64,000 bases of DNA. Source: Longimicrobiales bacterium. GTDB taxonomy: Bacteria > Gemmatimonadota > Gemmatimonadetes > Longimicrobiales > Gaopeijiaceae. The notes beneath the pieces were generated by a model that made no database searches, was not told where the DNA came from, and saw only the letters and a program-made list of their open reading frames with translations. The DNA is taken from NCBI GenBank assembly GCA_963422615.1, contig OY730414.1, positions 124,001 through 188,000 on the forward strand, read 5' to 3'. A program made the translations under genes and the position numbers. Shown in pieces: positions 6,825 to 31,600 of this stretch. How positions within the stretch are numbered: the stretch's first letter is position 1; each line of letters starts with the position of its first letter.

Positions 6825-8089
6825 CGCCCGGCGGCCGGAGCGACGCATCCTGGCGCGCCGTCCAGGGCGCCGTGATTGTGCTGGTCGCCGGGTTCTTTCT
6901 GTTCAGCCTTCGGGACATCCTCGGTCCCTTTCTGCTGTACGGCGTGCTGGTCAGCCTCCTGGTGCCCTTCCGCGGCGTTCGCGGCCGAGCGATCCTGGTG
7001 ACCACGGCGACCGTCCTCGTGCTGATGTGGCTGCTCCACGTTGCCGGATCCCTGTTGGCGCCCTTCATCCTCGCCTTCGTCCTGGCGTACGTCTTCGACC
7101 CCCTCGTGGATCGCCTCTCGGCCCGTCCCCGGGTGGGGCGAAGCTCGGCCATATTCCTGATTCTGGTCCCGTTCCTGGCGGGGACGGCGGCAGTAGCAAT
7201 TGTGGGAATCCCGGCATTGACCCGACAGGCGGGCGCCCTCATCGGAGAGGTGTCCCGGATCGTAGAGGAGATCGGGGCATGGGTCCGGACTCTGGACCCT
7301 GCCTCTCCCGGCTTCGACATTCCCCTGGTGGATGAGGCCGCCCTGCTGACCCGAATCCAGGACCTGGACGCCCAGACGGCGGTTGAGTTCCTGGAGACGC
7401 GACTCGCCGAAGTCGCCGCAGAGGTCTGGACCGCCGTTCTCGGGCTCGGGCGGGGTATCGGCACCCTCCTGACCGTGTTGAGCTACCTGGTCCTGACCCC
7501 GGTCCTGGCCTTTTACCTGCTCCGGGACTACGACTTGATCGTCCAGCGTACCCGCGACCTGATGCCCGAATGGCTCCGGCCGGGAGCCGACAGCTTCCTG
7601 GGAGAGTACGATACCCTTCTTTCCCGCTACCTGCGGGGACAGGTGTCGGTTGCCGTCATTCTGGGCTGCATCACGTGGCTGGGTCTGTTGGTTGTCGGAT
7701 TCCCCTATTCCTTCCTTCTCGGCGCGACCGCGGGCGTATTGAGCGTGGTTCCCTATGTGGGGCTCATGCTGTCATTGATCCCGGCGGTTCTGATCGCCCT
7801 TACAAGCGGAGACCCGGGGTGGTCCCTGGTCAAAGTGGCCGGGGTCTACGGGGCTGCCCAGGGGCTGGAGGGCGTCGTGATCAGTCCCAGAATCCTGGGA
7901 GACTCCGTGGGACTGCACCCTGTGTGGGTCTTTCTCGCTCTCTCGATCGGCGGACTCTTCTTCGGATTCGCCGGACTGCTGATCGGCGTCCCCTTGGCCG
8001 TCGGCGTAAAGCTCCTCCTGGTCCGGGCCGTGGCACATTACAAAAAGTCGGCGCTGTACCGGGAAGGGCCCGCCGGATTCGCGGAATGA
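6821..8089 (+). CDS. AI-2E family (PerM-like) transporter
   Basis: LAYVFDPLV, YLRGQ, VPYVG, PRILGDSVGLHP motifs; many TMs. Confidence 0.92.
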   Translation: MTPGGRSDASWRAVQGAVIVLVAGFFLFSLRDILGPFLLYGVLVSLLVPFRGVRGRAILVTTATVLVLMWLLHVAGSLLAPFILAFVLAYVFDPLVDRLSARPRVGRSSAIFLILVPFLAGTAAVAIVGIPALTRQAGALIGEVSRIVEEIGAWVRTLDPASPGFDIPLVDEAALLTRIQDLDAQTAVEFLETRLAEVAAEVWTAVLGLGRGIGTLLTVLSYLVLTPVLAFYLLRDYDLIVQRTRDLMPEWLRPGADSFLGEYDTLLSRYLRGQVSVAVILGCITWLGLLVVGFPYSFLLGATAGVLSVVPYVGLMLSLIPAVLIALTSGDPGWSLVKVAGVYGAAQGLEGVVISPRILGDSVGLHPVWVFLALSIGGLFFGFAGLLIGVPLAVGVKLLLVRAVAHYKKSALYREGPAGFAE

Positions 8090-8130
8090 CCCCCCAAGAG
8101 AAAAACGACCGCGTCAACCCCCAGGGGACC

Positions 8131-9096
8131 ATGGCGGAAGTAACCAAAGAGACGTTGGTGATCATCGGCTCCGGACCCGCAGGATGGACGGCCGCCATCT
8201 ACGCGGCCCGGGCGAATCTGGACCCCCTCGTCTTCGAGGGTGAAGGGAGCCGGACCATGATCCCGGGCGGCCAGCTCATGTTCACAACCGACGTCGAAAA
8301 CTACCCAGGCTTCCCCGACGGCGTCGGGGGCATCGAAATGATGACGGACTTCAAGAAGCAGGCCGTCCGCTTCGGCACTCGGGTCATCCCGGAGGACATC
8401 GTTCACGTAGATTTTTCCCAGCGACCCTTTCTCCTCCGATCGTCGGAAAACCGGGAAATCCTGGCCGGGTCCGTCATCGTCGCGACGGGAGCCAACGCCC
8501 GCTGGCTGGGAATCCCCGGAGAAGAACGGCTGGCTCGAAGTGGAGGGGGCGTCTCGGCGTGCGCGGTTTGCGACGGTGCCCTGCCCCACTTCAGGGATCG
8601 GGTGATCGCCGTGGTCGGGGGGGGCGACAGCGCCATGGAAGACGCCCTCTACATGACGAAGTTCGCAAGCCAGGTGCTGGTGATTCATCGTCGGGCCGAA
8701 CTTCGGGCCTCCCACATCATGCAGAATCGGGCAAGAGCAAACCCCAGGGTCCGCTTCCTCTGGAACCAGACCGTCATCAAGGTGCTGGGCGGCGACGTGA
8801 TCACCGGACTCCGCCTGAAGGACGCCGTGACCGGCAACGAATCGGAGGTGGAGGTCGGCGGCCTCTTTGTCGCCATCGGCCACACGCCGAATACGGGATT
8901 TCTGTCCGGTCATCTCGACCTCAAGGAGAACGGCTACATCCGGCTGCCCAAGCCGTGGCGCACGGAGACCAGTGTACCGGGGGTGTTCGCCGCCGGCGAC
9001 GTCATGGACGATTACTATCGCCAAGCCGTCTCCGCTGCTGGGACCGGGTGCATGGCCGCCCTGGAAGCCGAGAGATTCTTGTCTCACGGGGACTGA
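8131..9096 (+). CDS. trxB: Thioredoxin-disulfide reductase (alternative ATG at 8086)
   Basis: IIGSGPAGWTAAIY, VENYPGF, SACAVCDG redox motif, VVGGGDSA, GVFAAGDV. Confidence 0.96.
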   Translation: MAEVTKETLVIIGSGPAGWTAAIYAARANLDPLVFEGEGSRTMIPGGQLMFTTDVENYPGFPDGVGGIEMMTDFKKQAVRFGTRVIPEDIVHVDFSQRPFLLRSSENREILAGSVIVATGANARWLGIPGEERLARSGGGVSACAVCDGALPHFRDRVIAVVGGGDSAMEDALYMTKFASQVLVIHRRAELRASHIMQNRARANPRVRFLWNQTVIKVLGGDVITGLRLKDAVTGNESEVEVGGLFVAIGHTPNTGFLSGHLDLKENGYIRLPKPWRTETSVPGVFAAGDVMDDYYRQAVSAAGTGCMAALEAERFLSHGD

Positions 9097-11991: not shown

Positions 11992-12408
11992 ATGCAGAGA
12001 GTAGGAATCACCCGTCGCCTGCACTTCAGCGCCGCCCACCGCCTTGCTCGCCCGGAGTGGAGCGACGAGGAAAACCGGCGCACCTTCGGCGACTGTGCGA
12101 ACCCGAACTGGCACGGCCACAACTACGAACTGGACGTGACCGTAGTCGGGCCGGTCCACGATGCCACCGGGTATGTGATGGACCTCAAGGACCTCAAGGA
12201 CTTGGTGAACCACCGTGTGATCGCCGATCTGGACCACCGGAACCTGAACCTGGACGTCCCGTGGCTGGCCGGAGTTCTGCCCTCAACGGAGAACCTGGTG
12301 GTGCGCATCTGGGAGCGTATCGCGCCGCTGATCCCACCGCCGGCGGTCCTCAGCCGACTGGTCCTTTGGGAGACGCCCCGTCACCGGGTGGAGTACTCGG
12401 GTGACTGA
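11992..12408 (+). CDS. queD: 6-carboxytetrahydropterin synthase / PTPS family
   Basis: FSAAHRL, CANPNWHGHNY, LDHRNLN, STENL, LWETP motifs. Confidence 0.92.
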   Translation: MQRVGITRRLHFSAAHRLARPEWSDEENRRTFGDCANPNWHGHNYELDVTVVGPVHDATGYVMDLKDLKDLVNHRVIADLDHRNLNLDVPWLAGVLPSTENLVVRIWERIAPLIPPPAVLSRLVLWETPRHRVEYSGD

Positions 12409-13105
12409 CCGCCGCACCGCTCTGGTGACGGGAGCGACCGGGGGGATCGGGGCAGCGATCGTCCGGCGCTTGGAGGCAAACGGCTTTCGGGTCTACGCTG
12501 GCGGACGAAACGGGACCCGCCTCAAGAGCCTAGCCTCTCTTGAGAACGTAGTGGCGCTGCCATTCGACGTGACCGTCGAAGGAGAGGTTGAACGTGCTCG
12601 GGAGGGAGTCGCCCAGGCGGGCGCCACCCCCCTGGACTTGGTGGTGAACGCCGCCGGCGTCTTCGGTCTGGCACCGGTGACCCAAACCCCCGGGGCCCTT
12701 CTCGCCCGCAGCCTGGACGTCAACCTCAGGGGCGCCTTCCACGTTGTGCGCGCCTTTCTGCCGGCCATGCTGGACGCAAGGGCGGGACTCGTCGTCAACG
12801 TGGGTTCAGTCGCAGGCCGACGGGCCTTCCCTGAAAACAGCGCCTACAGTGCCTCCAAGTTCGGACTTCGGGGGTTCCACGAGGTTCTCCTGGAAGAGAT
12901 GCGTGGCACGGGCGTCCGGGCATGCCTGCTGGAGCCCGGGGCCGTGGACACCCCTCTCTGGGATCCGCTGGATCCCGATTCCGTTCCTCACCTCCCGAAC
13001 CGGAGCCGGATGTTGCGTCCCGACGATGTGGCCCGGGCGGTGGAATTCATGGTCGGGCTGCCGGCTCGGATCTCGGTACCCCTCATCCAGGTAGAGCGGG
13101 CGTGA
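12401..13105 (+). CDS. SDR family oxidoreductase
   Basis: VTGATGGIG, VNAAG, YSASK catalytic motif, PGAVDT. Confidence 0.93.
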   Translation: MTDRRTALVTGATGGIGAAIVRRLEANGFRVYAGGRNGTRLKSLASLENVVALPFDVTVEGEVERAREGVAQAGATPLDLVVNAAGVFGLAPVTQTPGALLARSLDVNLRGAFHVVRAFLPAMLDARAGLVVNVGSVAGRRAFPENSAYSASKFGLRGFHEVLLEEMRGTGVRACLLEPGAVDTPLWDPLDPDSVPHLPNRSRMLRPDDVARAVEFMVGLPARISVPLIQVERA

Positions 13106-13851
13106 ACGTCCTCCTGACCGACCACTTGGTGTGTCCCCGCTGTGGTCCTCCCTTCGGACTCGTCCTGCTGGCCCGGGACGTGCGGGACCGACGGGTCCGC
13201 CGGGGGGAGCTGGGCTGCTCGAACTGCCGCGATGCCTTTCCCGTCAAAAACGGCTTCGCCGATCTGCGTCCTCCCCCTCGGGATCCTCCGCCGCTGGAAC
13301 CGGGAGGGGGCGCTTCGGGAGCGGGCGGACGGGCACCCCAGGATCCGCGCCAGGGCAAGCCTCCCTCCCTCCTCGCCCCTTCCGGAGGAGGAAGCGGCGA
13401 CGACACCTCGGGGCATTCGCCCCTGAAATGGGCGCCCGGCGGCCTTACCCTGGGCTTGGCCGCGTCTCTGGGCGTGACTGAGGGACCCGGGCTGGTGATG
13501 GTTTCGGAGGCCCACAGGGACAAGGCCGTTTCCCTTTCCCGCTTGGTTCCAGGCATCGAGGTGATCGCCCTCGGGTGGGGAGGACGAGACTTCGAGTGTC
13601 CCGGAGCGGCGGTTAGCCCCATGGTCACGGCCGACCGGTTGCCCTTTCGTGACGGATGCGCGCGGGGGGTGGTGCTGGCGGGCGAAGACTTCAAGCGACG
13701 TTGGCGCGAATCGGCCCGAGTGCTCGTGGCCGGGGCGAGGGTTGTGATCACGGATCCGCCCCCCGAGGCCCGGAAGCGCTTGGAGTCCTGCGGGCTGGTC
13801 GTGGTACTGGACGGCGAGGCGTTTCTGGCAGCGGGAAGAAAGCGGGTGTAG
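13102..13851 (+). CDS. Trm112-like Zn-knuckle protein with a degenerate methyltransferase-like C-terminus
   Basis: LVCPRC...LGCSNCRDAFPVKNGFADL; LPFRDG motif; GTG overlaps upstream stop. Confidence 0.75.
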   Translation: MNVLLTDHLVCPRCGPPFGLVLLARDVRDRRVRRGELGCSNCRDAFPVKNGFADLRPPPRDPPPLEPGGGASGAGGRAPQDPRQGKPPSLLAPSGGGSGDDTSGHSPLKWAPGGLTLGLAASLGVTEGPGLVMVSEAHRDKAVSLSRLVPGIEVIALGWGGRDFECPGAAVSPMVTADRLPFRDGCARGVVLAGEDFKRRWRESARVLVAGARVVITDPPPEARKRLESCGLVVVLDGEAFLAAGRKRV

Positions 13852-13883
13852 CCAGGAGCCCCTGTGCAGAAAGGGTCCTGGCT
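13850..13883 (+). terminator. Inverted repeat after the queD operon, at the left edge of the accessory block
   Basis: agccaggagccc...gggtcctggct hairpin; no U-tract. Confidence 0.45.
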
Positions 13884-13890
13884 CCAAGTA

Positions 13891-13921
13891 TTGACAAGTC
13901 CACTGCGTTTTCGCATACCTT
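13891..13921 (+). promoter_or_regulatory. Possible sigma70 promoter for a leaderless transcript starting near ATG 13928
   Basis: Perfect TTGACA at 13891 and TACCTT at 13916-13921, 7 nt before the ATG; 19-nt spacer is suboptimal. Confidence 0.4.
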
Positions 13922-13927
13922 AGGGTT

Positions 13928-15397
13928 ATGTTTCCCCGGTCCTCCCCGGTCCTCCCCGGTCCTCCCCGGTCCTCCCCGGTCCCCCGGTCCTCCCCGGTCC
14001 TCCCCGGTCCTCCCCGGTCCTCCCCGGTCCTCCCCGGTCCTCCCCGGTCCTCCCCGGTCCTAGGCGCCAATGATCCGGGGTCGCATTCTCATCTAGCGGA
14101 GAAACCCGCACCTGACGCGACGGCGATTCCTGCACCGTCAACGCCGGCGCCTTTCGTACGATTCAAAGCGGAGACGATTCCCTCCCGTGCGGAGCACCAC
14201 GAGAGCCTCCCGCATATCGTCAAGTTTTCCGGCGGGAGATCTTCCGCCACCCTAGCCATCCTCCTCGCGGAGTCGGGTCTGCTCAAGCCCCAGCGAGGTG
14301 ATGCGATTCTCTTCGCCAACACATCGGCAGAGCACCCGGCCACTTACGAGTTCGCCCGAAAGTGCAAGTCCGAACTGGAGGGGAAATTTGGCATTCCGTT
14401 CTTCTGGTTCGAGTTCTGCACGGTGGAAGACGCGTCCCGCGGCGCCTACGCACGGCGCGCATCGTACCGCCTCGTCAAGCCGGTGCCCATTGAGAAAGAC
14501 CCGGCAGGCTATCGTTCCCACGGCGAAGTGTTTGAGGAGATGCTCTCGTACCAGGGCATGCTTCCCAATCCGCATCAGCGGTCCTGCACGGCCAAGCTGA
14601 AGCTCTATCCATCGCACCAGTTTCTTGCCGAATGGCTGGGCAGGACCCGAGGACCAAGCCACACCGGACACCACGGCGACAGGCGCTATTTGACCCCGGA
14701 GACCGCACTCGCGCAGTATCGAAGAAACGGCGGAAAGGCTTCAAGTCAGGCCTACCTGAAGCGCGTCCGCTACATGACGAACCAACCCCCGGCTCGCCCA
14801 GCCCAGCGGTGGTGCGACTACACCCACGCAGACATTCCGGTTCGATCCGGCCGGCCCGGCCCGGTTTCCATGTGGGGACCTTGTGCGGCGCGTCACGTTA
14901 CAATGCTGGGGCTTCGCGCAGACGAACCCCAGCGCATCAACAAGATCACAGCCCGATCGATCTTCGCCGAAGGCGCCGGAAGCAGGTCGTGTGCAATTCA
15001 CACTCAGCCCCCGGGCGAATATCCGTGCTTCCCCCTGGCGGACTGGGGATTCGACGGCGGCGCGGTTCGCCAGTTTTGGCTTCGGCGCAGCTTCGACCTG
15101 GATGCCCCGGCCCACGCCGGCAATTGCGTTTTCTGTTTTATGAAGGGAACCCATGCGCTTGCTTCGGCGGCCCGCCGCTGCAGCCCGCCAAACGTAAGGG
15201 CCCCGTCGGACATCTCTTGGTGGATCGAAATGGAAAATCGCTACGGTCGAATCGAACCATCCCGAGATGCTCCGGGAACGACCCGGTTTGGCTTCTTCGG
15301 CGTACGCGGACCCACCTTCGCCGAGCTCGCAGATGGTGCTGTCGCGAAAAACGGACGCTACGCCACAGGCTCCCCGGCGTGCGACTGCACGGACTAA
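13928..15397 (+). CDS. PAPS-reductase/DndC-like adenine-nucleotide alpha-hydrolase (PP-loop) protein with Cys clusters
   Basis: VKFSGGRSS PP-loop, FANTSAEHPATYEF, RSCTAKLK, GLRADEPQR, FPLADWG, GNCVFCFMK, terminal CDCTD. Confidence 0.85.
   Translation: MFPRSSPVLPGPPRSSPVPRSSPVLPGPPRSSPVLPGPPRSSPVLGANDPGSHSHLAEKPAPDATAIPAPSTPAPFVRFKAETIPSRAEHHESLPHIVKFSGGRSSATLAILLAESGLLKPQRGDAILFANTSAEHPATYEFARKCKSELEGKFGIPFFWFEFCTVEDASRGAYARRASYRLVKPVPIEKDPAGYRSHGEVFEEMLSYQGMLPNPHQRSCTAKLKLYPSHQFLAEWLGRTRGPSHTGHHGDRRYLTPETALAQYRRNGGKASSQAYLKRVRYMTNQPPARPAQRWCDYTHADIPVRSGRPGPVSMWGPCAARHVTMLGLRADEPQRINKITARSIFAEGAGSRSCAIHTQPPGEYPCFPLADWGFDGGAVRQFWLRRSFDLDAPAHAGNCVFCFMKGTHALASAARRCSPPNVRAPSDISWWIEMENRYGRIEPSRDAPGTTRFGFFGVRGPTFAELADGAVAKNGRYATGSPACDCTD
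13933..14060 (+). repeat. 10-bp tandem repeat (TCCCCGGTCC): 12 full units plus one 8-nt unit, 128 nt
   Basis: Read directly: 5 units, one truncated unit at 13983-13990, then 7 units. Confidence 0.97.
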
Positions 15398-17329
15398 ATG
15401 AAATCTGAATTCGTGAATCCAGACCTGCTTTTTCAACCGGGCCCGCCCCAGGGCTTTTCGACGCTGGCAACCGCTCAATGGCACGGCAATCCTGAACCAA
15501 TCGTTCGCGAACTACTCCAGAACTGTTTAGACGCCGCAGAAAAAGCAAAGCGGAACAAAGCGGAAGTTTGGTTCACTGCCCTGGACGTTCCCAAGTACGA
15601 CATTCCGGGAATTGCCTCCTACCAGTACCACTTCGAAGAGGCCGTACACCAGCGAGCATTTGGGACACAGGGAGAGAACGAGAAGCAGGTAATCCGACGC
15701 ATCAAGAAAGTTCTGAAGGCCCCGCGCATTCCCGTGCTGTATTGCCGGGATAACGGCGTTGGACTCAATCCGGACCGCATGTCACGGCTCCTCACGGAGG
15801 GCAACACCGACAAGGGTCAAAAGGGTGCGGGATCTTACGGAATCGGGCACCTTACGGCCTTTGCGGCTTCAGATTTGCGTTACATCTTGTATGCTGGTCG
15901 GTACCGGGACCAGAAGGCCGAAACCTTACGCGACGTTTCCAGTGCTCACGCAATTCTTGCGTCATGCAAGACCAAGAACGGCGGCGTCGGAGGACGCGGC
16001 TACTGGCTCATCGTCGAGCAGACCCTTTTTGATGCTTCTCCCTATCCCGGTCAAGCGCCTCCGTTGCTGGCGCGGGAGCTGGATCAGCTGGAGGAAACCG
16101 GGAGCGTGATAGGCATTCCGGGGTTCAACGACTTTCGGTGCAGTGACCCGATGGATGCAATCGCCCGGGTGGCTGCAAAGAATTTTCTTGTCGCCATTTG
16201 GCAGGGCAAGATGCGGGTGAGAATTCGCGGCCAATCCGAAAAGGCCGTAGACGGTCGCCAGGGGCTCCTGAATGTCCTTGCGCCGGAAAAGAAAAAGAAG
16301 CAAGCGGAACAGGGCGGAGGTTGGCTATCCGGCGCCCAAGCCTATCAAGCGTGGGAGACGCTGGACCAGGGTCGCAGGTTCACCCTCACATCAGGGGCCC
16401 AAGTCTACTTCCGACCTCTGCCGAAAGACACCGTGACGACGCAATCTCGAGTCCAGCTGTTTCGCAACGGCATGTGGATTACCAACAACGCAGACAGACT
16501 CAAGCCCTTCGACTTCAACGGAGTAAATCCATTTAGCGCAGTAATCATGATCGAGGACGGTGAGCTTTGCCGCCTTGTGCGCGGCGCGGAGGGTCCGGAG
16601 CACAGAGGCTTGGTTCGGAAGCGCCTGAATCGCAATGATAATAAGCGACTGTTGGAGCTCCTGAAGCAGATCGCCAGCGAACTTCGAACAGAAGCCGGCG
16701 AAACCGAGGCGACTCGCGAATACACACCGACCGACTTCGCGATGTTTCCCGGACAGTCACAGCCACAAGCCGAAGTCGTGCCCCCGTATCGGCCGCGCCG
16801 CCCACCTTCCGATTCAGAAGGACGATCGACGACTTTGCAACCGACGGATGACGAAAACGGTATTGATCGTTCGCACAAGGGAAAAACCCGATCCCGAGGC
16901 CGTGGCGCGGCACCCAAGCCCGGACGCAGCCTGCCGGGCAGGTTTTCTGTGCTGGGCATACGAAATTCCGAAGGCAGAATCGACACAGTTCGAGTCGTCT
17001 GGCAACAGGGCGGGCGCACCAATGCGGCGAAGGGCCCTCTTGGCATTCGTATGCGGGTTCGTTCCGGATCCGACGAAACATGCGATCGACCCTTGGCTCC
17101 CGAGTGGCTGCGCCTCCGGGAGATTCGCCACCCGGACGGGATCACGCGGCCTCAAACCCGCGATCCTTGTGAGGTCAGACTTCCCCGGGCCCACTCCGAG
17201 TTTACCGTGGCATTGGCGCATGCGGTCGACGATCCCAACGCCATTGAGATCGATTTCGTGCAACGAAGGGGACGCGCGTCAGGAAACCACCAGCGACCGA
17301 AACGTTCAGACGCATCTAGCCGTGCTTGA
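15398..17329 (+). CDS. GHKL (HATPase_c-like) ATPase, ZacA-like
   Basis: RELLQNCLDA N-box, RDNGVGL G1, GSYGIG G2; starts immediately after the upstream stop. Confidence 0.82.
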   Translation: MKSEFVNPDLLFQPGPPQGFSTLATAQWHGNPEPIVRELLQNCLDAAEKAKRNKAEVWFTALDVPKYDIPGIASYQYHFEEAVHQRAFGTQGENEKQVIRRIKKVLKAPRIPVLYCRDNGVGLNPDRMSRLLTEGNTDKGQKGAGSYGIGHLTAFAASDLRYILYAGRYRDQKAETLRDVSSAHAILASCKTKNGGVGGRGYWLIVEQTLFDASPYPGQAPPLLARELDQLEETGSVIGIPGFNDFRCSDPMDAIARVAAKNFLVAIWQGKMRVRIRGQSEKAVDGRQGLLNVLAPEKKKKQAEQGGGWLSGAQAYQAWETLDQGRRFTLTSGAQVYFRPLPKDTVTTQSRVQLFRNGMWITNNADRLKPFDFNGVNPFSAVIMIEDGELCRLVRGAEGPEHRGLVRKRLNRNDNKRLLELLKQIASELRTEAGETEATREYTPTDFAMFPGQSQPQAEVVPPYRPRRPPSDSEGRSTTLQPTDDENGIDRSHKGKTRSRGRGAAPKPGRSLPGRFSVLGIRNSEGRIDTVRVVWQQGGRTNAAKGPLGIRMRVRSGSDETCDRPLAPEWLRLREIRHPDGITRPQTRDPCEVRLPRAHSEFTVALAHAVDDPNAIEIDFVQRRGRASGNHQRPKRSDASSRA

Positions 17330-18119
17330 ACCCTTGCCGGATTCGTTCCCAATTCTCTTGGAAGACGGATCGAGACTTGATTGGCCCGGCGCCAAATACG
17401 AACCGAGCGTCTACGTCGGCCCCAGTCAGGCAAATATTACGCACAAACTATCCGGCGCACACGAACTCGCAACGTTGATTGAGAGAGGAAGCGCGATGTG
17501 GGCCGCGGAGTTGCGATGTCCAAAAACGCTCATGGCTCGAATAGAGACTTGCAGCAGCGACCGCCAACAGGTGACGTGGAACGAAAGGGATGTAGACGGG
17601 GACATATATGTCATGCCCGGAGTTGTGACGAACGAGAGGTTGGTGCTTGAAGGAGCAGAGTTGAGTGCCATCTGGAAGGACATTTTGCCGTTGCAGGCAC
17701 CTCGAGGATGGTGGCTTGTCCGCGGGAATGTACGCCGGACAAAAACGCTGGCGGAATCCCTACTCAAGTTTGTACTGGAAGAAAATGCAGAGAGCGGCCG
17801 TATCGAAGTCAAGCCCGACAGAAGTAGCGGTCGGCTGCGCTTCACGGTTCACGTGGATCCCGACCTCTTTGAACATGTCAAGTCGGATCGTACCTTGAAA
17901 ATCGCAGCGCTCGTGGGTGCCTGTGGGTGGTTACCAGAAATCTTTCGTCTTGATGACCCGGCGGCCGACGAAGATCCTCTTGCCACCCAGCTGCGCGAAC
18001 TCTTGACCAGCAGGGAACCGGATGTACGGCTCTGGGATCACGACCTCTACGACCCGGCTCTTGTAGCCACGATCCTTGAACCCCTCCACTTCGACAGCCA
18101 GGACCCCAGGGATGGATAG
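17322..18119 (+). CDS. Hypothetical protein, ZacB-like position (265 aa)
   Basis: GTG start overlaps ATPase stop; globular composition; AELRCPKTLMAR motif. Confidence 0.7.
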   Translation: MLEPLPDSFPILLEDGSRLDWPGAKYEPSVYVGPSQANITHKLSGAHELATLIERGSAMWAAELRCPKTLMARIETCSSDRQQVTWNERDVDGDIYVMPGVVTNERLVLEGAELSAIWKDILPLQAPRGWWLVRGNVRRTKTLAESLLKFVLEENAESGRIEVKPDRSSGRLRFTVHVDPDLFEHVKSDRTLKIAALVGACGWLPEIFRLDDPAADEDPLATQLRELLTSREPDVRLWDHDLYDPALVATILEPLHFDSQDPRDG

Positions 18120-19002
18120 ACATCTGCTTGAGAGGACGGGGTCGCGGTTTGACGAATGGCAAAGGGGAATTATCTTCCAGAGTACGCGCCACGGAAAATG
18201 GACAGCCGCTGACCCGAGAATTACAAATCCAATTCGGAAGCGACAGGAAGAACTCCAAGCTGCAATTTCCGCTGGGGCACACGCCTTGAGCGCCTATCTA
18301 CGTAAGAAACTACAAATCTCCCAAGGCGAACTCGGCGCCCCTAGGTTTCCCAGGCCGAGGCTAACCCCACGGGAATTTCAGGACCCGCCCTTGGAACTGG
18401 AGGAAGAACTTGGGAAGGCCTGGATCGGCCTTCGTACGAGCTTGACATCACAGCCGTTGTTCTGGTTGCTGTGTCACATAGACTGGCTTGAACAGGGCCG
18501 TTTCGATGTTACTGGCCATCATCTGGCCGAAGCCTTCACGGCCGGGCACGGCGATACGAAGCGTGAGGCCCGTACTCGAAATTTTCTCCGGCGCACAAGT
18601 GGACTCCCGGTAGCACGTGGAAATACGTCGGTCTTTTCCGACTGCCTCATGGCTCGATCTTGGTGGCGTTACCATTTAGCCGACCAGGTAGAAAAAGTCA
18701 CAGCAGGACGGGTCCGACGCAGAACTGCCCACCGGGTGCTCCACACGAACCGGCCAGCATGGGAAGAGCTCATCATGCGATCTCTGCGGCGCATCACCGT
18801 GATCAACCAGCCCCGAGCCCGTGCGGCGATCGTGCACCAGCTGGCGAGCCGCCTTGAATCGCGCGGGCACATTGACAAAAAAGATGTGCAGGGAATCACT
18901 CTGGTGTTTGCCCGGCAAGGCTTGCGCCGATCCTTTGAGCACACCTCTTGGGAAGATCTAACGGGAGGATCCCGAACGACCCCGAGCTCGGCGACAACAT
19001 GA
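18112..19002 (+). CDS. Hypothetical protein, DUF6339/ZacC-like (296 aa)
   Basis: 8-nt overlap with upstream gene; FWLLCH and MARSWWR resemble remembered DUF6339 LW..LTH and SRLWW motifs (not searched). Confidence 0.65.
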   Translation: MDRHLLERTGSRFDEWQRGIIFQSTRHGKWTAADPRITNPIRKRQEELQAAISAGAHALSAYLRKKLQISQGELGAPRFPRPRLTPREFQDPPLELEEELGKAWIGLRTSLTSQPLFWLLCHIDWLEQGRFDVTGHHLAEAFTAGHGDTKREARTRNFLRRTSGLPVARGNTSVFSDCLMARSWWRYHLADQVEKVTAGRVRRRTAHRVLHTNRPAWEELIMRSLRRITVINQPRARAAIVHQLASRLESRGHIDKKDVQGITLVFARQGLRRSFEHTSWEDLTGGSRTTPSSATT

Positions 19003-19072
19003 TGGGTGTGCTCACCGACATCGTGACGGCCCCGCTGTCCGTTGATGCCCGCCAGAACAGGAGTAAACTAGA

Positions 19073-20926
19073 ATGTCAATGTTGAGTATACCGCCCAAGT
19101 ATCTCAACCGCAAGGTTATGGACTGGCTGAAGATGGCCGATGCCGGAGAACTGGTCCTCCCCAGTTTTCAGCGTAGCTATGTTTGGGATCCTCCAAGGGT
19201 CGCCAACTACCTGGTGGCCCTGCTGGAGCGCAAGCCGACCGGAACATTCCTCATTCTCGAAGCAGACGATCCCATCCAGTTCAGTTCACGTCGCCTACTC
19301 GGTTGCCGAAACGATGGCTCGGTCGGGAAACCGAGAGAGCTCGTGCTGGATGGCCAGCAACGCTTGACCGCGCTTTGGGGAGCACTGAGGGGCAACAAAG
19401 AGAAGCGGTACTTCATTCGGGTGGAGAATCTTCTGCATTGCAAGATGATTGTAGAAGAGGTGGTCTGGCGAAGTCCAAAGTGGAAGGCCAAGAACCCGGA
19501 ATTGATCTGGAAGGAAAACTTGGTCCCGGCGGACATTTTGTGGCACGACAGGGATTCGTCGACTGGATCCGGTACCCTGGATCGCATCGCGGAATGGTGT
19601 AAGACCGCTCCGAAAACGAAGGGAGGTCCGAATTTTCTGTACCAAGCGATTGCTAGGCTTCGGGAGCGATTGCTCATAGAGCCGTTTCTGCAGTACTGCA
19701 TGCTTGCAAAGGAAACGGAACCCGATGTGGCAATCGATATATTCATCAAGGTAAATGAATCTGCGGTCAAGCTGAAAAAGATTGACATCATCGTGGCGCT
19801 TGCTCAGTCCGACCACGAGGTCGACTTGAGAAGTAGAGCTCGCGACTTCCTTCACCGAAGTAGCGAATTGCGGCATTATTTCAACCCGGTCATGCGAAAA
19901 GCAATTCCGGAAATCGCAGAATGGGTTCTCAAGGTCGGCTGTCTGAAGGTTGATAGCGAAGACCATCCGGATGGTCTTGCTCCGAAAGAATCGAACTACG
20001 TCTTGGCGATCAACTACCTGACGGAGAGGGATCTGAACGAACTTGAAGGCGACCTTGACGCGACGCTGAACTTTGTCGCTCGTAACGGCGGCGGCGCTAC
20101 AAAGAGAACCCTCGCAGCATGGCCGCCGGTGCACGTGATCGCAGCTCTGCAGAATGACTTGCGAGCCGTCGCAAATGTCTCCGCGGGCGCGGTGAACCAT
20201 CTCATTCTGTCGTATCTGTGGCGTTCATTTCTGACCAGCCGCTACCAGGCCATCGCGAACGACCGACTGCTGCATGACTTTAGGGGCCTTCGCGAATACC
20301 TCAGAAGGGTGGAAACAGGGTCTGGCAAGCCCAACCTTGCCGCTACTGTGCCGATATTTGACGAGAGTGCGTACCCTCTTCCAAGCGCAGAATCGCTTCG
20401 GAGACCGACCGGAGTTCCCTGGATTGGAGGCATTTCAAGATTAGGGCGAGCCATTGCCGCTGTCGTCATGCAGAAAAATCCGCTTGACTGGGTAACGGGT
20501 CAAGAACTTGATTTCGAGCGGGTGCGCGATCTCGAGTCCAAGAAGAAGCTCAAGCGACATTATGTCTTTGATGAAACTTGCTTTCCTACAGATGTTTTGG
20601 AAAAAATTTCTATCAAACACGGCCTCAACGGCGTCCTCCTTGCAAGGCCCAGCGTCCCGACTGGAAACGATAAAGACCCAGTGAACTTCCTGGAATGGAT
20701 TCGGCAAAACAAACCGAAAGTGACCGAATTGGAAATTCTTCGCCGAACCGGTTCCCATCTGATACCGTACAAGTCCCTTGAGAAGAATGGAAATCTTGTG
20801 TGGCACTATAGCAACTTCCTCAAGGCGCGCGCCGTAAAAGTGGAGGAAGAAATTAGGAAGCTCACGACCCTTCGATCAAGGGATCCGGATTCATTACGTT
20901 GGGCCAAGCGCCGCTCCCCATCTTGA
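19073..20926 (+). CDS. DUF262-domain GmrSD-like protein
   Basis: LVLPSFQRSYVW, LVLDGQQRLTAL, IFIKVN...KL motifs of DUF262. Confidence 0.88.
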   Translation: MSMLSIPPKYLNRKVMDWLKMADAGELVLPSFQRSYVWDPPRVANYLVALLERKPTGTFLILEADDPIQFSSRRLLGCRNDGSVGKPRELVLDGQQRLTALWGALRGNKEKRYFIRVENLLHCKMIVEEVVWRSPKWKAKNPELIWKENLVPADILWHDRDSSTGSGTLDRIAEWCKTAPKTKGGPNFLYQAIARLRERLLIEPFLQYCMLAKETEPDVAIDIFIKVNESAVKLKKIDIIVALAQSDHEVDLRSRARDFLHRSSELRHYFNPVMRKAIPEIAEWVLKVGCLKVDSEDHPDGLAPKESNYVLAINYLTERDLNELEGDLDATLNFVARNGGGATKRTLAAWPPVHVIAALQNDLRAVANVSAGAVNHLILSYLWRSFLTSRYQAIANDRLLHDFRGLREYLRRVETGSGKPNLAATVPIFDESAYPLPSAESLRRPTGVPWIGGISRLGRAIAAVVMQKNPLDWVTGQELDFERVRDLESKKKLKRHYVFDETCFPTDVLEKISIKHGLNGVLLARPSVPTGNDKDPVNFLEWIRQNKPKVTELEILRRTGSHLIPYKSLEKNGNLVWHYSNFLKARAVKVEEEIRKLTTLRSRDPDSLRWAKRRSPS

Positions 20927-21149
20927 AATAAGCGTCGCTTTCTCGCTTTTCTCCTCATCCTTTCCTCTCACCCTCCCAGGGGAACCATAAGGCGGAAGAA
21001 AGTGGCATCGGGTCGGAAGACCAAGGGGAACCGGCCACGGGGAGCTGGGGAGCCCGTGGGTCCGGACCGAAAACACGAGACCGACAACCGGCGTTGACTG
21101 CTTTGGCTGCAAGTCGTCGGGGCGAATCGGCTGTTTCGGTGGTCGGGAC

Positions 21150-21190: not shown

Positions 21191-21264
<74 letters not shown>

Positions 21265-28664: not shown

Positions 28665-31600
28665 ATGGGCTCACAGAACCCTGATGGGCTTGCAAAACCG
28701 AATGCTTTCGACGGAAACGAGAGCGTTCTCAAGCTTGCGAAGCGTTCTCCCGGCTTTGACAGCCTCCGGGGCTACCGCGGGGAGAACGCTGCCGCCGGAA
28801 TCATTCGGCTGGGAGAGGCGGCGGCTCGGGAAGGAAGAAACGCGCTCCTGGAAGCGCTGGAAACTCCCGGGGGTCGTGTGTTTTTCTCCTTCCTGTTCGG
28901 GAACAGTCCGTTCCTGGGCCGACTCCTACTGCGAGATACAGAGTTCACCCAGTCGTTGATGGAGGAGCCCCCGGGCGTACTCGTCCAACGGGTCCGGAGC
29001 AGCCTGTCCGACGGGGACCCGGAGATGGAGCGGGACCAACTGATGAGGTTCTTGCGGGTACAGCGAAACCGGGTGGCCCTCCTCGCCGCGGTCTACGACT
29101 GCTTCTCCATCGCCGGCGTCATGGAGTGCGCCAGACTACTATCGGATATGGCCGACCATGCCGTTCGCCTGGCCGTATCCCACTTGCTTGGGGACCGGGT
29201 GAAGCGGGGGGAATTGGACCTTCCAGAGGAGGGGGAGCCCGGCAGCGGCCTGCGAAGCTGGGGGTATTTCGTCCTCGCCATGGGCAAGCACGGGTCCCGG
29301 GAGCTGAATTATTCCTCCGACATCGACCTCATCGTCCTCTACGATCCGGAATTCGTCCGCTACACGGGAAGAAGAACGCTTCGCGACTGTTTCGTCCGGG
29401 TAACGCGAGATTTGGTCCGCATCCTCCAGGCCCGAACCGGTCACGGCTACGTCTTTCGAACCGACCTGCGCCTCCGGCCCGACGCGTCCTCCACACCGCC
29501 CGCCATCACTACCGATTTCGCTCTGGACTACTATGGCCGTTTCGGACGCACCTGGGAGCGGGCGGCACTCATCAAGGCCCGGCCAGTCGCCGGCGACATC
29601 CGAGCGGGTGCCAAGTTCATGGAACGGGTATCCTCGTTCATTTGGGATGAGGGCCTCGACTTTACGTCCGTTGAGGAAATTCGGTCCATGAGCCAACAGA
29701 TTCACGACTTCCATGGCCACGGGGCGGTTCGCGCCCCCGGTCACAACGTGAAACTGGGCCGGGGAGGCATTCGGGAAATCGAATTCTTCGTCCACATGCA
29801 CCAGTTGGCCCACGGGGGCCGCAACCGTCGACTACGCGGTCCTGGGCTTCTCGCCATGCTGGAAACCCTGGAGCGCGAACACCATATCCTGCCCCGGGAA
29901 ACCGCCACTCTGCGAGACGCATACCTTTTGCTACGGCGGGTCGAACACCGCCTGCAGATGGTGAACGACGACCAAGTCCAGAAGCTCCCGCAGACCCTGG
30001 AGGGCCTGGAGCACATCACAACCTTCTTGGGCCTCCCGTCTCCAGACGTGCTCACCGGGCTGATCGAGAACGCCGCCCGGGAGGTTCACGCCCTTTACCG
30101 CACTCGCTTCAACGTTCCCGAAAGCGACCTGGACATCAGCGTGGCCGTTCTGGACGGACCGGAGGGGAGTCCCGACGCCGTAAAGATGCTCGAGGCGGCA
30201 GGGTTTGCCCGTCCGCTCACGGCCATCGAGATCTATAGACGGTGGGCGGAAGGCGGCTACGATTCGACGCGTTCGAAACGGGCCCGCGCCACGATTCGGG
30301 AGATCTTGCACGAAATCATCGCCGCCTTGGGGAAAACACCCGACCCGGATCGCGCCCTGGTTCGCATGGACAAGTTCCTCGAGACGCTTCCCCAGGACGT
30401 TTCCCTTTTTTCCATGCTCAGGGCAAACACCTGGCTCCTCAACCTCATCGCCGTGGTGATGGGCAGCGCCCCGCGCCTCGCCGACACCCTGGGTGGCAAC
30501 CCCCGGCTCCTCCAAGCCGTTCTGGATCCGTCGTTCTTCCTGCCGGCGCCGGATCGGGATTCACTGACCCGGGAGCTCCGGGAGCGTCTGGAAGGGGAAC
30601 GAGACGTCGGCAGACGCACAGAATACGTGACGGAATGGGCAGACGAACGGCGCTTCCAAGCGGGCGTTCAGACCTTGCAGAATTTGGTGACCGTGGACGA
30701 AGCATCCACTTTTCTTACCCACATTGCAGATGTCACCATCGAGACGCTGCTCCAAGACGTGACCGCCGAAATGCACAAGACCCACGGCGTCGTGCCGGAA
30801 GGAGGATGTGCGATCGTGGGGTTGGGCAAGCTCGGGGCCTGCGAAATGACGTTCGAGTCGGACCTGGACCTCATTTTCGTGGCAGCTGTCCCGAACGAGG
30901 AAGAGAAAACGACAGGGACTCGGCCCATCGGTATTCGGCGCTTCCATACGCGGGTCGCCCAGCGGCTCATCGCCGCCCTTAGGCGTCGGTCGGCCTCCGG
31001 CATACTTTGCGAAGTGGACATGCGCTTACGTCCCTTCGGCGAAAGCGGACCTCTGGTGACGACCCTCTCGGCATTCCGGGATTACCACGCCAGTTCTGCA
31101 TGGACTTGGGAGCACATGTCCCTGACCCGCGCCAGATTGGTTTGCGGACACCCAGCCACGGCCCGCGCCGTCGCCTCGGAGATCCAAAGTATTCTCACCC
31201 GCCTCCGGGATCCCGAGCGCCTCCTCAAGAACGTAAGCCGGATGCGCAGCCGGCTCGCTGCCGAGTATTCGTCGGACGATCCATTCGAACTGAAGCACGT
31301 GCGGGGCGGGCTTGTGGACTTGGAGTTCATGGCCCAGTATTTTCAGTTGCTCCATGCCCACGAATCTCCAGGTGTACTGGTCGGGGGAACCGCTCCGGGT
31401 TTCGATGCCCTCGCCACCGCGAGCGTCCTTGAGGAAGGGGACGCGCGTTTTCTCGCCGGGGCGGTTCGGATGCAGCGTTCCATTCAAGCAATTCTCAGGC
31501 TGGCATGGAGCAAAAGCGTTCCTGTGCACCAAGCCCCAGAAGCCCTTCGGAGCAAGCTGGCAGTCGCTCTTGAATGCGAAGATTTCGACGAGCTGGCGTT

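Follow-up and report, generated by a model that had tools for sequence, protein, structure and literature searches.

Five consecutive genes on the forward strand of contig OY730414.1 of a Longimicrobiales bacterium, contained in a 64,000-nucleotide stretch that we call the window, include a PP-loop enzyme gene (g1), a triad headed by a GHKL ATPase gene (g2, g3 and g4), and a DUF262 gene (g5). In our reading, g1 to g4 form a single functional unit that is conserved and has spread horizontally, with g5 recurring as an accessory partner of this cassette. Together they make up a real, conserved and apparently undescribed composite system that belongs to none of the Ssp, Dnd, BREX type 4 or Azaca systems. 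We judge the chances to be about even that the whole is a phase-variable DNA-modification and defence system, probably one that inserts sulfur into DNA in the manner of phosphorothioate (PT) modification.

All five genes are open reading frames (ORFs) of the plus strand. The first, g1 (13928-15397), encodes a cysteine-rich PP-loop enzyme of 489 amino acids that belongs to the phosphoadenosine phosphosulfate (PAPS) reductase family and resembles SspD and BrxP. The product of g2 (15398-17329; 643 amino acids) is a GHKL ATPase with a Bergerat fold, of the PDC-M33A family. The products of g3 (17322-18119, GTG start; 265 amino acids) and g4 (18112-19002, ATG start; 296 amino acids) are, respectively, a PDC-M33B-like protein with a beta sandwich like those of fibronectin type III (FN3) and immunoglobulin (Ig) domains, and an all-helical protein that is a divergent relative of DUF6339 and PDC-M33C. 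Finally, g5 (19073-20926) encodes a DUF262 (GmrSD_N) protein of 617 amino acids with a DGQQR motif. A first-pass annotation of the window had reported five co-directional genes at these coordinates and translational coupling of the first four, and both observations stand: the g2 ATG abuts the g1 stop codon with zero spacer, and 8-nucleotide overlaps join g2 to g3 (17322-17329) and g3 to g4 (18112-18119). The g4 stop and the g5 start are separated by a gap of 70 nucleotides.

Eighty loci were retrieved from one-genome-per-species contigs with a profile of g2 relatives. A g1 gene lies directly upstream of g2 in 71 of these, a figure that combines an automated count of 69 (g1 ending within 300 bp of g2) with two loci, L021 and L064, where there is a second ATPase paralogue. 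The third gene follows in 78 of the 80 loci and the fourth in 77, the misses being contig ends or a truncated copy. According to their record titles, the loci represent six phyla, namely Gemmatimonadota, Chloroflexota, Actinomycetota, Acidobacteriota, Verrucomicrobiota (Opitutales) and Pseudomonadota. Carriers are mostly metagenome-assembled genomes (MAGs), several of which bear Candidatus names taken from sponges (Poriferisodalis, Poriferisocius, Spongiisociaceae and Hopanoidivorans cymbastelae). Conservation within the cassette is highest for g1, with 50-71% identity in typical loci versus 31-59% for g2. Among 401 genomes sampled from the phylum without bias, 15 contain g1 and 13 contain g2, and g1 is beside g2 in all 13; the two extra g1 matches are fragments, and there is no full-length g1 without g2. 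Recurrence of the PP-loop gene upstream of the ATPase gene, which the first-pass annotation had proposed as a test of its interpretation, is thus evident in both collections.

Two Dehalococcoidia loci that lack g1 carry a full-length GmrSD gene, with N and C domains, directly upstream of g2 on the same strand (L035:6628-8937 and L038:7096-9402), positioned as if swapped for the PP-loop gene. In L038, an HNH_2 gene (13681-14586) comes right after g4.

Membership of the five window proteins in known families was scanned with Pfam and PADLOC at E <= 0.1. The g1 protein matches the PADLOC SspD model (E 2.7e-11) and, weakly, the BrxP model (E 0.099); its match to Pfam PAPS_reduct (E 0.0055) is under the Pfam cut-off. 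All 58 aligned g1 relatives match SspD (best 1.3e-11) and eight of them match BrxP (E <= 0.01), and 22 of the 30 ESM Atlas clusters nearest to g1 are PAPS_reduct. Among the 58 sequences, the SGGRSS PP-loop (residues 101-106) is nearly invariant, the named residues of an R218-x-C220-T221...K225 motif and of C400-x-x-C403 are invariant, and a C-terminal C485-D-C487 is nearly so. This conserved core starts near residue 84, and relatives align only from about residue 80 on. The g1 family comprises 1040 clusters in a collection of 5.8 billion proteins, the best 120 of which carry no functional name or Pfam domain. Its closest relative is 74% identical over 89% of the query, or 71% over the whole length; the g1 protein as read from the ATG at 13928 is absent from this collection, and no same-species alleles were found. 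A plasmid search yielded no g1 relative, and a sequence profile search of the PDB gave nothing relevant, the one match being Mad3 at E 0.12.

A second form of the cassette, type 2, includes a gene for a cysteine desulfurase. In the phylum sample, the spacing of g1 and g2 is about 1.2-1.3 kb in six genomes, and four such loci were examined; the type-2 cassettes, a six-gene form with a class-V aminotransferase gene between or beside g1 and g2, are seven in number (L021, L049, L080, L091, L092, L093 and L094). In L092 (3798-11953; G273:C1:1679000-1693000), the extra gene lies between g1 and g2 and encodes a class-V aminotransferase that matches Aminotran_5 (4.2e-76) and the PADLOC models SspA (1e-138) and DndA (5.9e-138), the latter two over their full length. 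Because the SspA and DndA models probably also match housekeeping IscS or NifS, the telling point is the location of this gene within the operon. Another type-2 cassette is in L021 (1809-7938). The order is rearranged to g2-g3-g4-g1-desulfurase in L049 (9-5991), which has the same gene set, and L080 (3904-13744) has a DUF262 gene between the desulfurase gene and g2, inside the cassette. Three genomes of the phylum sample (G061, G245 and G341) contain both type 1 and type 2. The genome of the window has at least five Aminotran_5 genes outside this locus, and a 2026 survey of PT systems (PMC12914056) describes DndA and SspA as often replaced by IscS.

Profile comparisons place g2 to g4 as a divergent member of the PDC-M33/DUF6339 group, an orphan candidate triad in PADLOC-DB v2. 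The g2 protein matches PDC-M33A with an E-value of 1.2e-27, and its family aligns with the PDC-M33A protein of a Lactococcus lactis plasmid at an hhalign probability of 99.1, with about 25-28% identity. GHKL motifs I, II and III are present and conserved (RELLQNCLDA, DNGVGL and GAGSYGIGH), and residues E38, N42, D45, D118, G120, G122, G145, G148 and G150 are invariant in 27 sequences. Other resemblances of g2 are a match to the sacsin ATP-binding-like domain of NCBIfam (8.4e-5), weak profile matches in the PDB to Hsp90 (3ied, E 0.007) and MutL N-domains, and a match to Pfam HATPase_c at only E 0.07. The C-terminal region of g2 is conserved and has no assigned fold. The family numbers at least 316 clusters, of which the best 120 have no functional name or Pfam domain, and no g2 relatives were found in viral contigs.

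The remaining two proteins of the triad are more divergent. The g3 protein matches PDC-M33B at E 0.0018, 62 of 75 relatives match it as well (best 3.3e-7), and hhalign detects a weak relationship to the plasmid PDC-M33B protein (probability 25.8, E 7e-4, 210 collinear columns). DUF6339, a lead of the first-pass annotation, holds for the family of the third triad gene and fails for its window copy: among 69 g4 relatives, 15 match the Pfam DUF6339 model (best 6.1e-6) and six match PDC-M33C, the window g4 matches neither model, and the g4 family compared with a single DUF6339 protein gives an hhalign probability of 0.35. The AlphaFold model of g3 has a mean predicted local distance difference test score (pLDDT) of 92.4 and consists of an N-terminal FN3/Ig-like sandwich and a helical C-terminal part. 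It resembles only generic FN3/Ig-like folds (Foldseek best E 2.6e-3; VIA-wide best Z 7.1, root-mean-square deviation (rmsd) 3.4, 95 residues). The g4 protein is all-helical and rich in arginine and tryptophan (pLDDT 93.2, predicted template modelling score 0.90); Foldseek matches to the PDB have E > 1, the best VIA-wide match is FlhA (Z 6.9, rmsd 3.1, 82 residues), and the ESM Atlas offers no lead (best score 0.77). To judge from these models, the fold searches indicate neither a function nor fold novelty for g3 and g4.

The g3 and g4 proteins are predicted to form a heterocomplex. The interface score ipSAE was 0.89 in three runs versus 0.04 for the best control, a mark that is reached by 116 of 157 solved complexes and by 2 of 215 mismatched pairs. 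Agreement among runs was at least 56%, and the partner pLDDT was at least 87. In the model, g3 residues 61-76, 88-92 and 164-172 face g4 residues 4-28, 108-116 and 221-236. The model supports binding without demonstrating it, and the predicted contact fits the overlapping reading frames of the two genes.

A canonical PDC-M33 triad is on the L. lactis plasmid NZ_CP094475.1 (L124, 70015-75968), whose proteins match the A, B and C models with E-values of 6.9e-162, 3.7e-63 and 3.7e-47. The third gene of this triad bears the annotation 'DUF6339 family protein', and abiGII is next to the triad. The window triad shares with the canonical form the A-B-C order and the overlapping genes, with g2 fitting A, the g3 family B and the g4 family, weakly, C/DUF6339. 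It differs in its low identity to the canonical proteins and in its company, since the canonical triad is not accompanied by PP-loop, desulfurase or DUF262 genes. We found no paper on PDC-M33 or on DUF6339. Another canonical triad, on a plasmid of Deinococcus actinosclerus (L125, CP029775.1 5009-16058), is near a cytosine methyltransferase/Vsr pair and a resolvase gene. Distant GHKL paralogues with 26-31% identity to g2 are located within 10 kb of the cassette in four loci (L033:8790-9545, L035:537-3057, L038:2548-3732 and L052:16969-18075); several PDC-M33-like modules can share one neighbourhood.

The g5 protein matches Pfam GmrSD_N (1.9e-20) and the PADLOC models HEC-05 (4.7e-18) and SspE (0.0036), with no detectable match to the GmrSD_C (DUF1524) domain. 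DUF262 relatives conserve a His-Me-like HHLFP...LN...TN pattern where g5, at residues ~495-540, has RHYVF in the window and RYKIF in L092, and this subfamily may have lost nuclease activity, so that it senses and does not cut. A DUF262 or GmrSD gene is present within 5 kb in 17 of the 80 loci, and an HNH_2 gene in seven. In L092, the type-2 cassette is followed by a DUF262 gene that is 47% identical to g5 over its full length, whereas the two g1 proteins are only 38% identical. The association with DUF262 posited by the first-pass annotation is therefore recurrent.

The 5' end of g1 in the window consists of a 10-bp tandem array (13933-14061, plus strand; TCCCCGGTCC, 13.1 copies according to Tandem Repeats Finder (TRF)). 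This array fills codons 2-45 of g1, the first 129 bp after the ATG, includes one shortened unit, and is translated as (PRSSPVLPGP)n, in frame in this assembly. Its TRF score of 244 is the second best of the 2.57-Mb genome, and its motif has no other occurrence there. The ATG at 13928 is the sole canonical in-frame start ahead of the g1 PP-loop motif, and the array is therefore expected to be translated; because it lies within the translated ORF, gain or loss of a 10-bp unit would shift the g1 frame. A simple-sequence repeat inside an ORF, with a unit length not divisible by three as found here, is characteristic of contingency loci, and we regard the array as a putative slipped-strand phase-variation switch. 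The first-pass annotation contained neither the tandem repeat nor the phase-variation signature.

Relatives do not have the 10-mer and carry homopolymers instead, including poly-C tracts at the same place in g1. In the loci, 32 of 46 homopolymer runs of at least 10 nucleotides, and 16 of 22 runs of at least 15, are in g1, g2 or the 150 bp upstream, a territory that makes up 16.9% of 1.569 Mb (binomial p 4e-15 and 1e-8, respectively, both values being overstated because the loci are related by shared ancestry). None of the 46 runs is in g3 or g4. The tracts in g1 and g2 are 10-28 nucleotides long, vary in length and occupy at least six different sites: poly-C of 10-28 nucleotides at the g1 5' end in four phyla, poly-G near g1 codon 250 in Acidimicrobiia, poly-G near g1 codon 320, poly-C or poly-G at the g1 3' end, poly-G near g2 codon 110, and (AG)17 in L072. 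Both frame states occur. The mid-g1 tract shifts the frame in L055 (G17), L058 (G18), L059 (G11), L061 (G11), L068 (G12) and L071 (G14) and keeps it in L073 (G12), and the g2 tract shifts it in L016 (G21) and L023 (G13) and keeps it in L003 (G16) and L017 (G21). A G13 tract is in frame in L029 and shifted in L043. In L011, a 304-bp unit is repeated 2.5 times just upstream of g1 (7712-8465), each with a G16-G18 tract, and g1 itself opens with a C19 tract. In L077, an 11/22/44-bp tandem array (AGCGCTCATTC-type, ~10.7 copies of the 11-mer) is directly downstream of g4 (13785-13922).

The genome of the window has 14 other long repeat tracts, nine of which fall in DNA methylase or restriction genes, and the cassette therefore shares the repeat signature of the organism's restriction-modification (R-M) genes. 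These nine are in two N6_N4_Mtase genes, two genes of Eco57I/MmeI type, a type ISP enzyme gene with two tracts, a Type_ISP_C gene, an HSDR_N gene, and a methyltransferase gene split by G20. Overall, about 12 tracts are G/C homopolymers of 11-21 nucleotides and two are tetranucleotide arrays, (TGTC)11.8 and (TTGC)10.5. All are outside the window (G000:C1; L095-L110), at 30288, 195635, 730518, 1153011, 1173122, 1194773, 1195080, 1199852, 1222612, 1237525, 1263940, 1658011, 2157113 and 2361882. One tract adjoins a DUF4411 gene and another a glycosyltransferase gene. Taken together, the tracts resemble a full complement of contingency loci in a bacterium that has not been cultured. Bacteria adapted to hosts typically switch genes by means of repeats, and phase-variable methylases are known regulators. 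The convergent repeats at several sites of g1 and g2 suggest that costly systems for defence or epigenetic control are turned on and off in uncultured symbionts, much as in host-adapted pathogens; to judge by titles and the beginnings of abstracts, we found no paper on such switching in sponge symbionts.

Comparison with known systems reveals likenesses to several and identity with none. According to the 2026 survey, SspD, DndC and BrxP are PAPS-reductase-domain enzymes essential for PT synthesis, and BREX type 4 was shown in 2026 to make PT DNA (PMC12914056). The survey's neighbourhood screen required PAPS-reductase genes to be beside P-loop NTPase genes (PMC12914056), and a GHKL-coupled form was therefore outside its scope. 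As in Ssp, there is an SspD-matching enzyme, an ATPase partner, a DUF262 partner that resembles the SspE N-domain and, in type 2, an operon-encoded SspA-like desulfurase. Unlike Ssp, the cassette has GHKL ATPase, beta-sandwich and DUF6339-like proteins in place of the SspB nickase and SspC P-loop ATPase; moreover, the SspD match is confined to two short stretches, g5 does not have DUF1524/GmrSD_C, and the window desulfurase is not in cis. BREX type 4 likewise combines a DndC/SspD-like PAPS-reductase-domain protein with a non-Dnd ATPase module, and is a precedent for modular PT synthesis (PMC12914056), but here BrxC, BrxZ and BrxL are absent and the ATPase is of GHKL and not P-loop type. DndABCDE-DndFGH resembles the cassette in having a cysteine desulfurase, a PP-loop/Fe-S enzyme and an ATPase, and in tying modification to a multi-gene restriction module, whereas its partner proteins are different and its DndC, DndD and DndE models find no match here. 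The type-2 gene set parallels those of the Ssp, Dnd and BREX type 4 phosphorothioation systems, with a GHKL ATPase replacing their P-loop ATPases. Phase-variable type I and type III R-M systems also have a simple sequence repeat, with a unit that is not a multiple of three, in the 5' coding region of a modification-side gene; however, g1 is not a methyltransferase, the 10-mer unit in the window is unusual, and switching of g1 is a prediction from sequence. We found no published description of a PAPS-reductase enzyme combined with a GHKL triad and a desulfurase or DUF262 gene, in agreement with the first-pass annotation, which knew of no such system.

If the locus is a PT-like modification and defence system, the following mechanism could be proposed. 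The g1 product would act as an SspD/BrxP-like PP-loop ATP pyrophosphatase that activates its target with ATP and transfers sulfur to it. C220, C400 and C403, which are invariant, could hold an Fe-S cluster, and the protein also has a C-terminal CDC tail. Sulfur would be delivered as a persulfide by a cysteine desulfurase, encoded in the operon in type 2 and supplied in trans in the window. The g2 ATPase and the g3-g4 heterocomplex would take the role of the P-loop ATPases and DNA-handling partners of other systems (DndD/E, SspB/C and BrxC/Z/L), and g5 would read the mark or act as effector, like SspE. Slipped-strand mispairing in the 10-bp array of g1 would turn expression on and off, and because g1 to g4 are translationally coupled, an OFF frame of g1 should silence or disable the unit. 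Since OFF frames of g1 are frequent beside intact g2 to g4, we infer that g2 to g4 are not lethal without g1. Tolerance of the OFF state would fit a mark or enzyme that is needed for activity, as in Ssp, BREX and type III R-M, and would fit less well a Dnd-like restriction of unmarked self DNA. The G+C-poor island, the PDC-M33 match, and abiGII beside the canonical triad count in favour of a defence context.

Several results weigh against interpretation as a PT-like system. The similarity of g1 to SspD is at the level of the superfamily, because the match is limited to model positions 2-54 and 66-103 of 277 and DndC models do not match: none of the 58 g1 relatives does so at E <= 0.01, and the NCBIfam DndC model has no match to g1 at E <= 0.1. 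None of the five proteins is a homologue of SspB, SspC, DndD, DndE or BrxC/Z/L in the PADLOC scan, and none is a desulfurase in either the Pfam or the PADLOC scan. The PP-loop pyrophosphatase chemistry is, according to the survey, common to the RNA-thiolating enzymes ThiI, MnmA, Ncs6 and TtcA (PMC12914056). DUF262 genes are absent from 63 of the 80 loci, and the C-terminal His-Me-type nuclease-like motif of g5 looks degenerate. Five of the 80 loci with full upstream sequence have the triad without g1 (L033, L035, L038, L052 and L063), as do plasmids of Lactococcus, Ligilactobacillus, Deinococcus and Arthrobacter, and g1 may therefore be an add-on instead of part of the core. PDC-M33 itself is a candidate only, and we know of no experimental validation or function for it. 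Regarding phase variation, homopolymer lengths in long-read MAGs are error-prone, which makes single ON and OFF calls uncertain. Nine public sequencing runs contain all or part of the stretch, with no RNA run among those listed; Logan contigs from three of them end in or at the g1 array with no piece spanning it, and one raw-read run contributed no reads, so variation in unit number is not observable there, and type-2 cassettes mostly do not have repeat tracts.

Several alternative explanations were considered. The locus might consist of separable systems, in which the triad is a self-sufficient defence system, g5 an independent type IV restriction enzyme of the GmrSD kind, and g1 an accessory outside the catalytic core, for example for self-marking or regulation. 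Loci and plasmids with the triad alone are consistent with this, as are the full GmrSD genes that take the g1 position in L035 and L038, the failure to find a plasmid relative of g1, the many loci without DUF262, and the 70-nucleotide gap before g5. However, we consider separable systems unlikely, given that g1 is the best-conserved gene, that it never occurs at full length without g2 in the phylum sample, that its stop codon abuts the g2 start, and that the gene set is retained both in L049, despite its rearrangement, and in type 2, despite its divergence, with an orthologue of g5 after the latter. The first-pass annotation had favoured another explanation, in which g2 to g4 represent a divergent Azaca (ZacABC) module linked to a modification enzyme and a DUF262 reader. 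In the accessible part of its description (bioRxiv 10.1101/2025.07.10.664194), Azaca is composed of ZacA (DUF6361), a PLD-like nuclease, and ZacC, a superfamily 2 (SF2) helicase with a Walker A motif, and a GHKL ATPase is not named. Azaca is an anti-phage system and, like the triad, has a similar layout of three genes, and one of 69 g4 relatives matches ZacB at E 0.028, which we take as noise. Domain content contradicts the proposal: DUF6361/ZacA has no match in the five proteins (E <= 0.1) or in 75 g3 and 69 g4 relatives, the Pfam and PADLOC scans of the five proteins detected no PLD or helicase domain and no ZacC match, and g2 is a GHKL ATPase that matches PDC-M33A. We therefore reject the assignment of g2 to g4 to Azaca as it is described there, and assign almost no likelihood to this explanation.

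Other alternatives accept the unit and dispute its substrate or its purpose. The g1 enzyme and desulfurase might thiolate RNA, such as tRNA or phage RNA, or might make a thiolated nucleotide or other small molecule that serves as a signal or toxin, with the triad using or sensing the product. The chemistry shared with RNA-thiolating enzymes (PMC12914056), the partial nature of the SspD match, and the lack of any detected nickase or DNA-binding partner of known PT systems would all be accommodated. On the other hand, the nearest defence-family models of g1 are the DNA-modifying SspD and BrxP, genes for DNA-reading or DNA-cutting proteins (DUF262/GmrSD and HNH) recur beside the unit, its repeats follow the pattern seen in R-M genes of the window's genome, and its patchy spread (15 of 401 genomes) is unlike that of housekeeping tRNA modification. 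An RNA or small-molecule substrate thus seems to us quite improbable. A slim chance is that the locus instead serves epigenetic regulation under phase variation (a phasevarion) or switches the interaction of symbionts with their hosts, with a DNA mark that controls gene expression and does not tell foreign DNA apart. Such a role would suit repeat switching of the kind typical of host-adapted bacteria, the many copies in the OFF frame, and carriers that are mostly MAGs, several with sponge-related names. Linkage to DUF262/GmrSD and HNH genes argues for defence instead, as do a spread across phyla like that of defence islands, the match of the triad to a candidate defence family, and its abiGII neighbour on a plasmid.

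The surroundings of the locus indicate a compositional island with ill-defined borders. G+C content is 0.53-0.59 over 15000-20999, compared with 0.67-0.69 upstream (12000-13999), 0.60-0.64 downstream, and 0.642 for the whole 2.57-Mb genome; the lower G+C content relative to the flanks had been noticed in the first-pass annotation. A tRNA-Ile(GAT) gene found by ARAGORN (21191-21264, plus strand), a downstream landmark outside the system, begins 264 nucleotides past the g5 stop, close to the distance of about 260 bp previously estimated. Both flanks consist of housekeeping genes, with fumarase, PTPS, short-chain dehydrogenase/reductase (SDR) and Trm112-like genes upstream and histidine kinase, binding-protein and glutamine synthetase genes downstream. 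In an empty-site comparison, relatives retain the PTPS-SDR-Trm112-like genes and not the downstream side, with no tRNA within 9 kb, and the island borders are therefore not fixable. A search for flanking direct repeats found no convincing one around the island. The sole border candidate is a 17-nucleotide imperfect direct repeat (88% identity) that brackets it at 13699-13715 and 21115-21131, and this is probably due to chance. A promoter scan upstream of g1 found no sigma-70-like site under the rules of the scan. There is a perfect TTGACA 31 nucleotides before the g1 ATG (window 13891-13930); the interval contains neither a clear -10 hexamer nor a clear Shine-Dalgarno sequence, and g1 may be transcribed into an mRNA with little or no leader.

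Phosphorothioation is, to our knowledge, the only known DNA backbone modification. So far it has been linked to the dnd and ssp gene families and, as of 2026, also to BREX type 4; the ATPases of all three are of the P-loop type. An SspD-like enzyme accompanied by a GHKL/DUF6339 triad, with a desulfurase subtype, is a testable candidate for new modification machinery, and the cassette is a first functional handle on PDC-M33 and DUF6339, both orphan families. Independently of this, the phase-variation signature is of interest in its own right. More tentatively, and with the chances against it, the cassette might represent a fourth, mechanistically distinct family of DNA sulfur modification, in which an SspD-like enzyme is driven by a GHKL ATPase and a DUF6339 heterocomplex, its mark is read by DUF262 proteins, and the whole is a repeat-switched 'thio-phasevarion' exchanged horizontally across six phyla, many of its carriers being sponge symbionts by name. 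If this is true, a role could also be assigned to the orphan candidate triad PDC-M33/DUF6339, namely that of a module for handling DNA which joins with different modification or reader genes.

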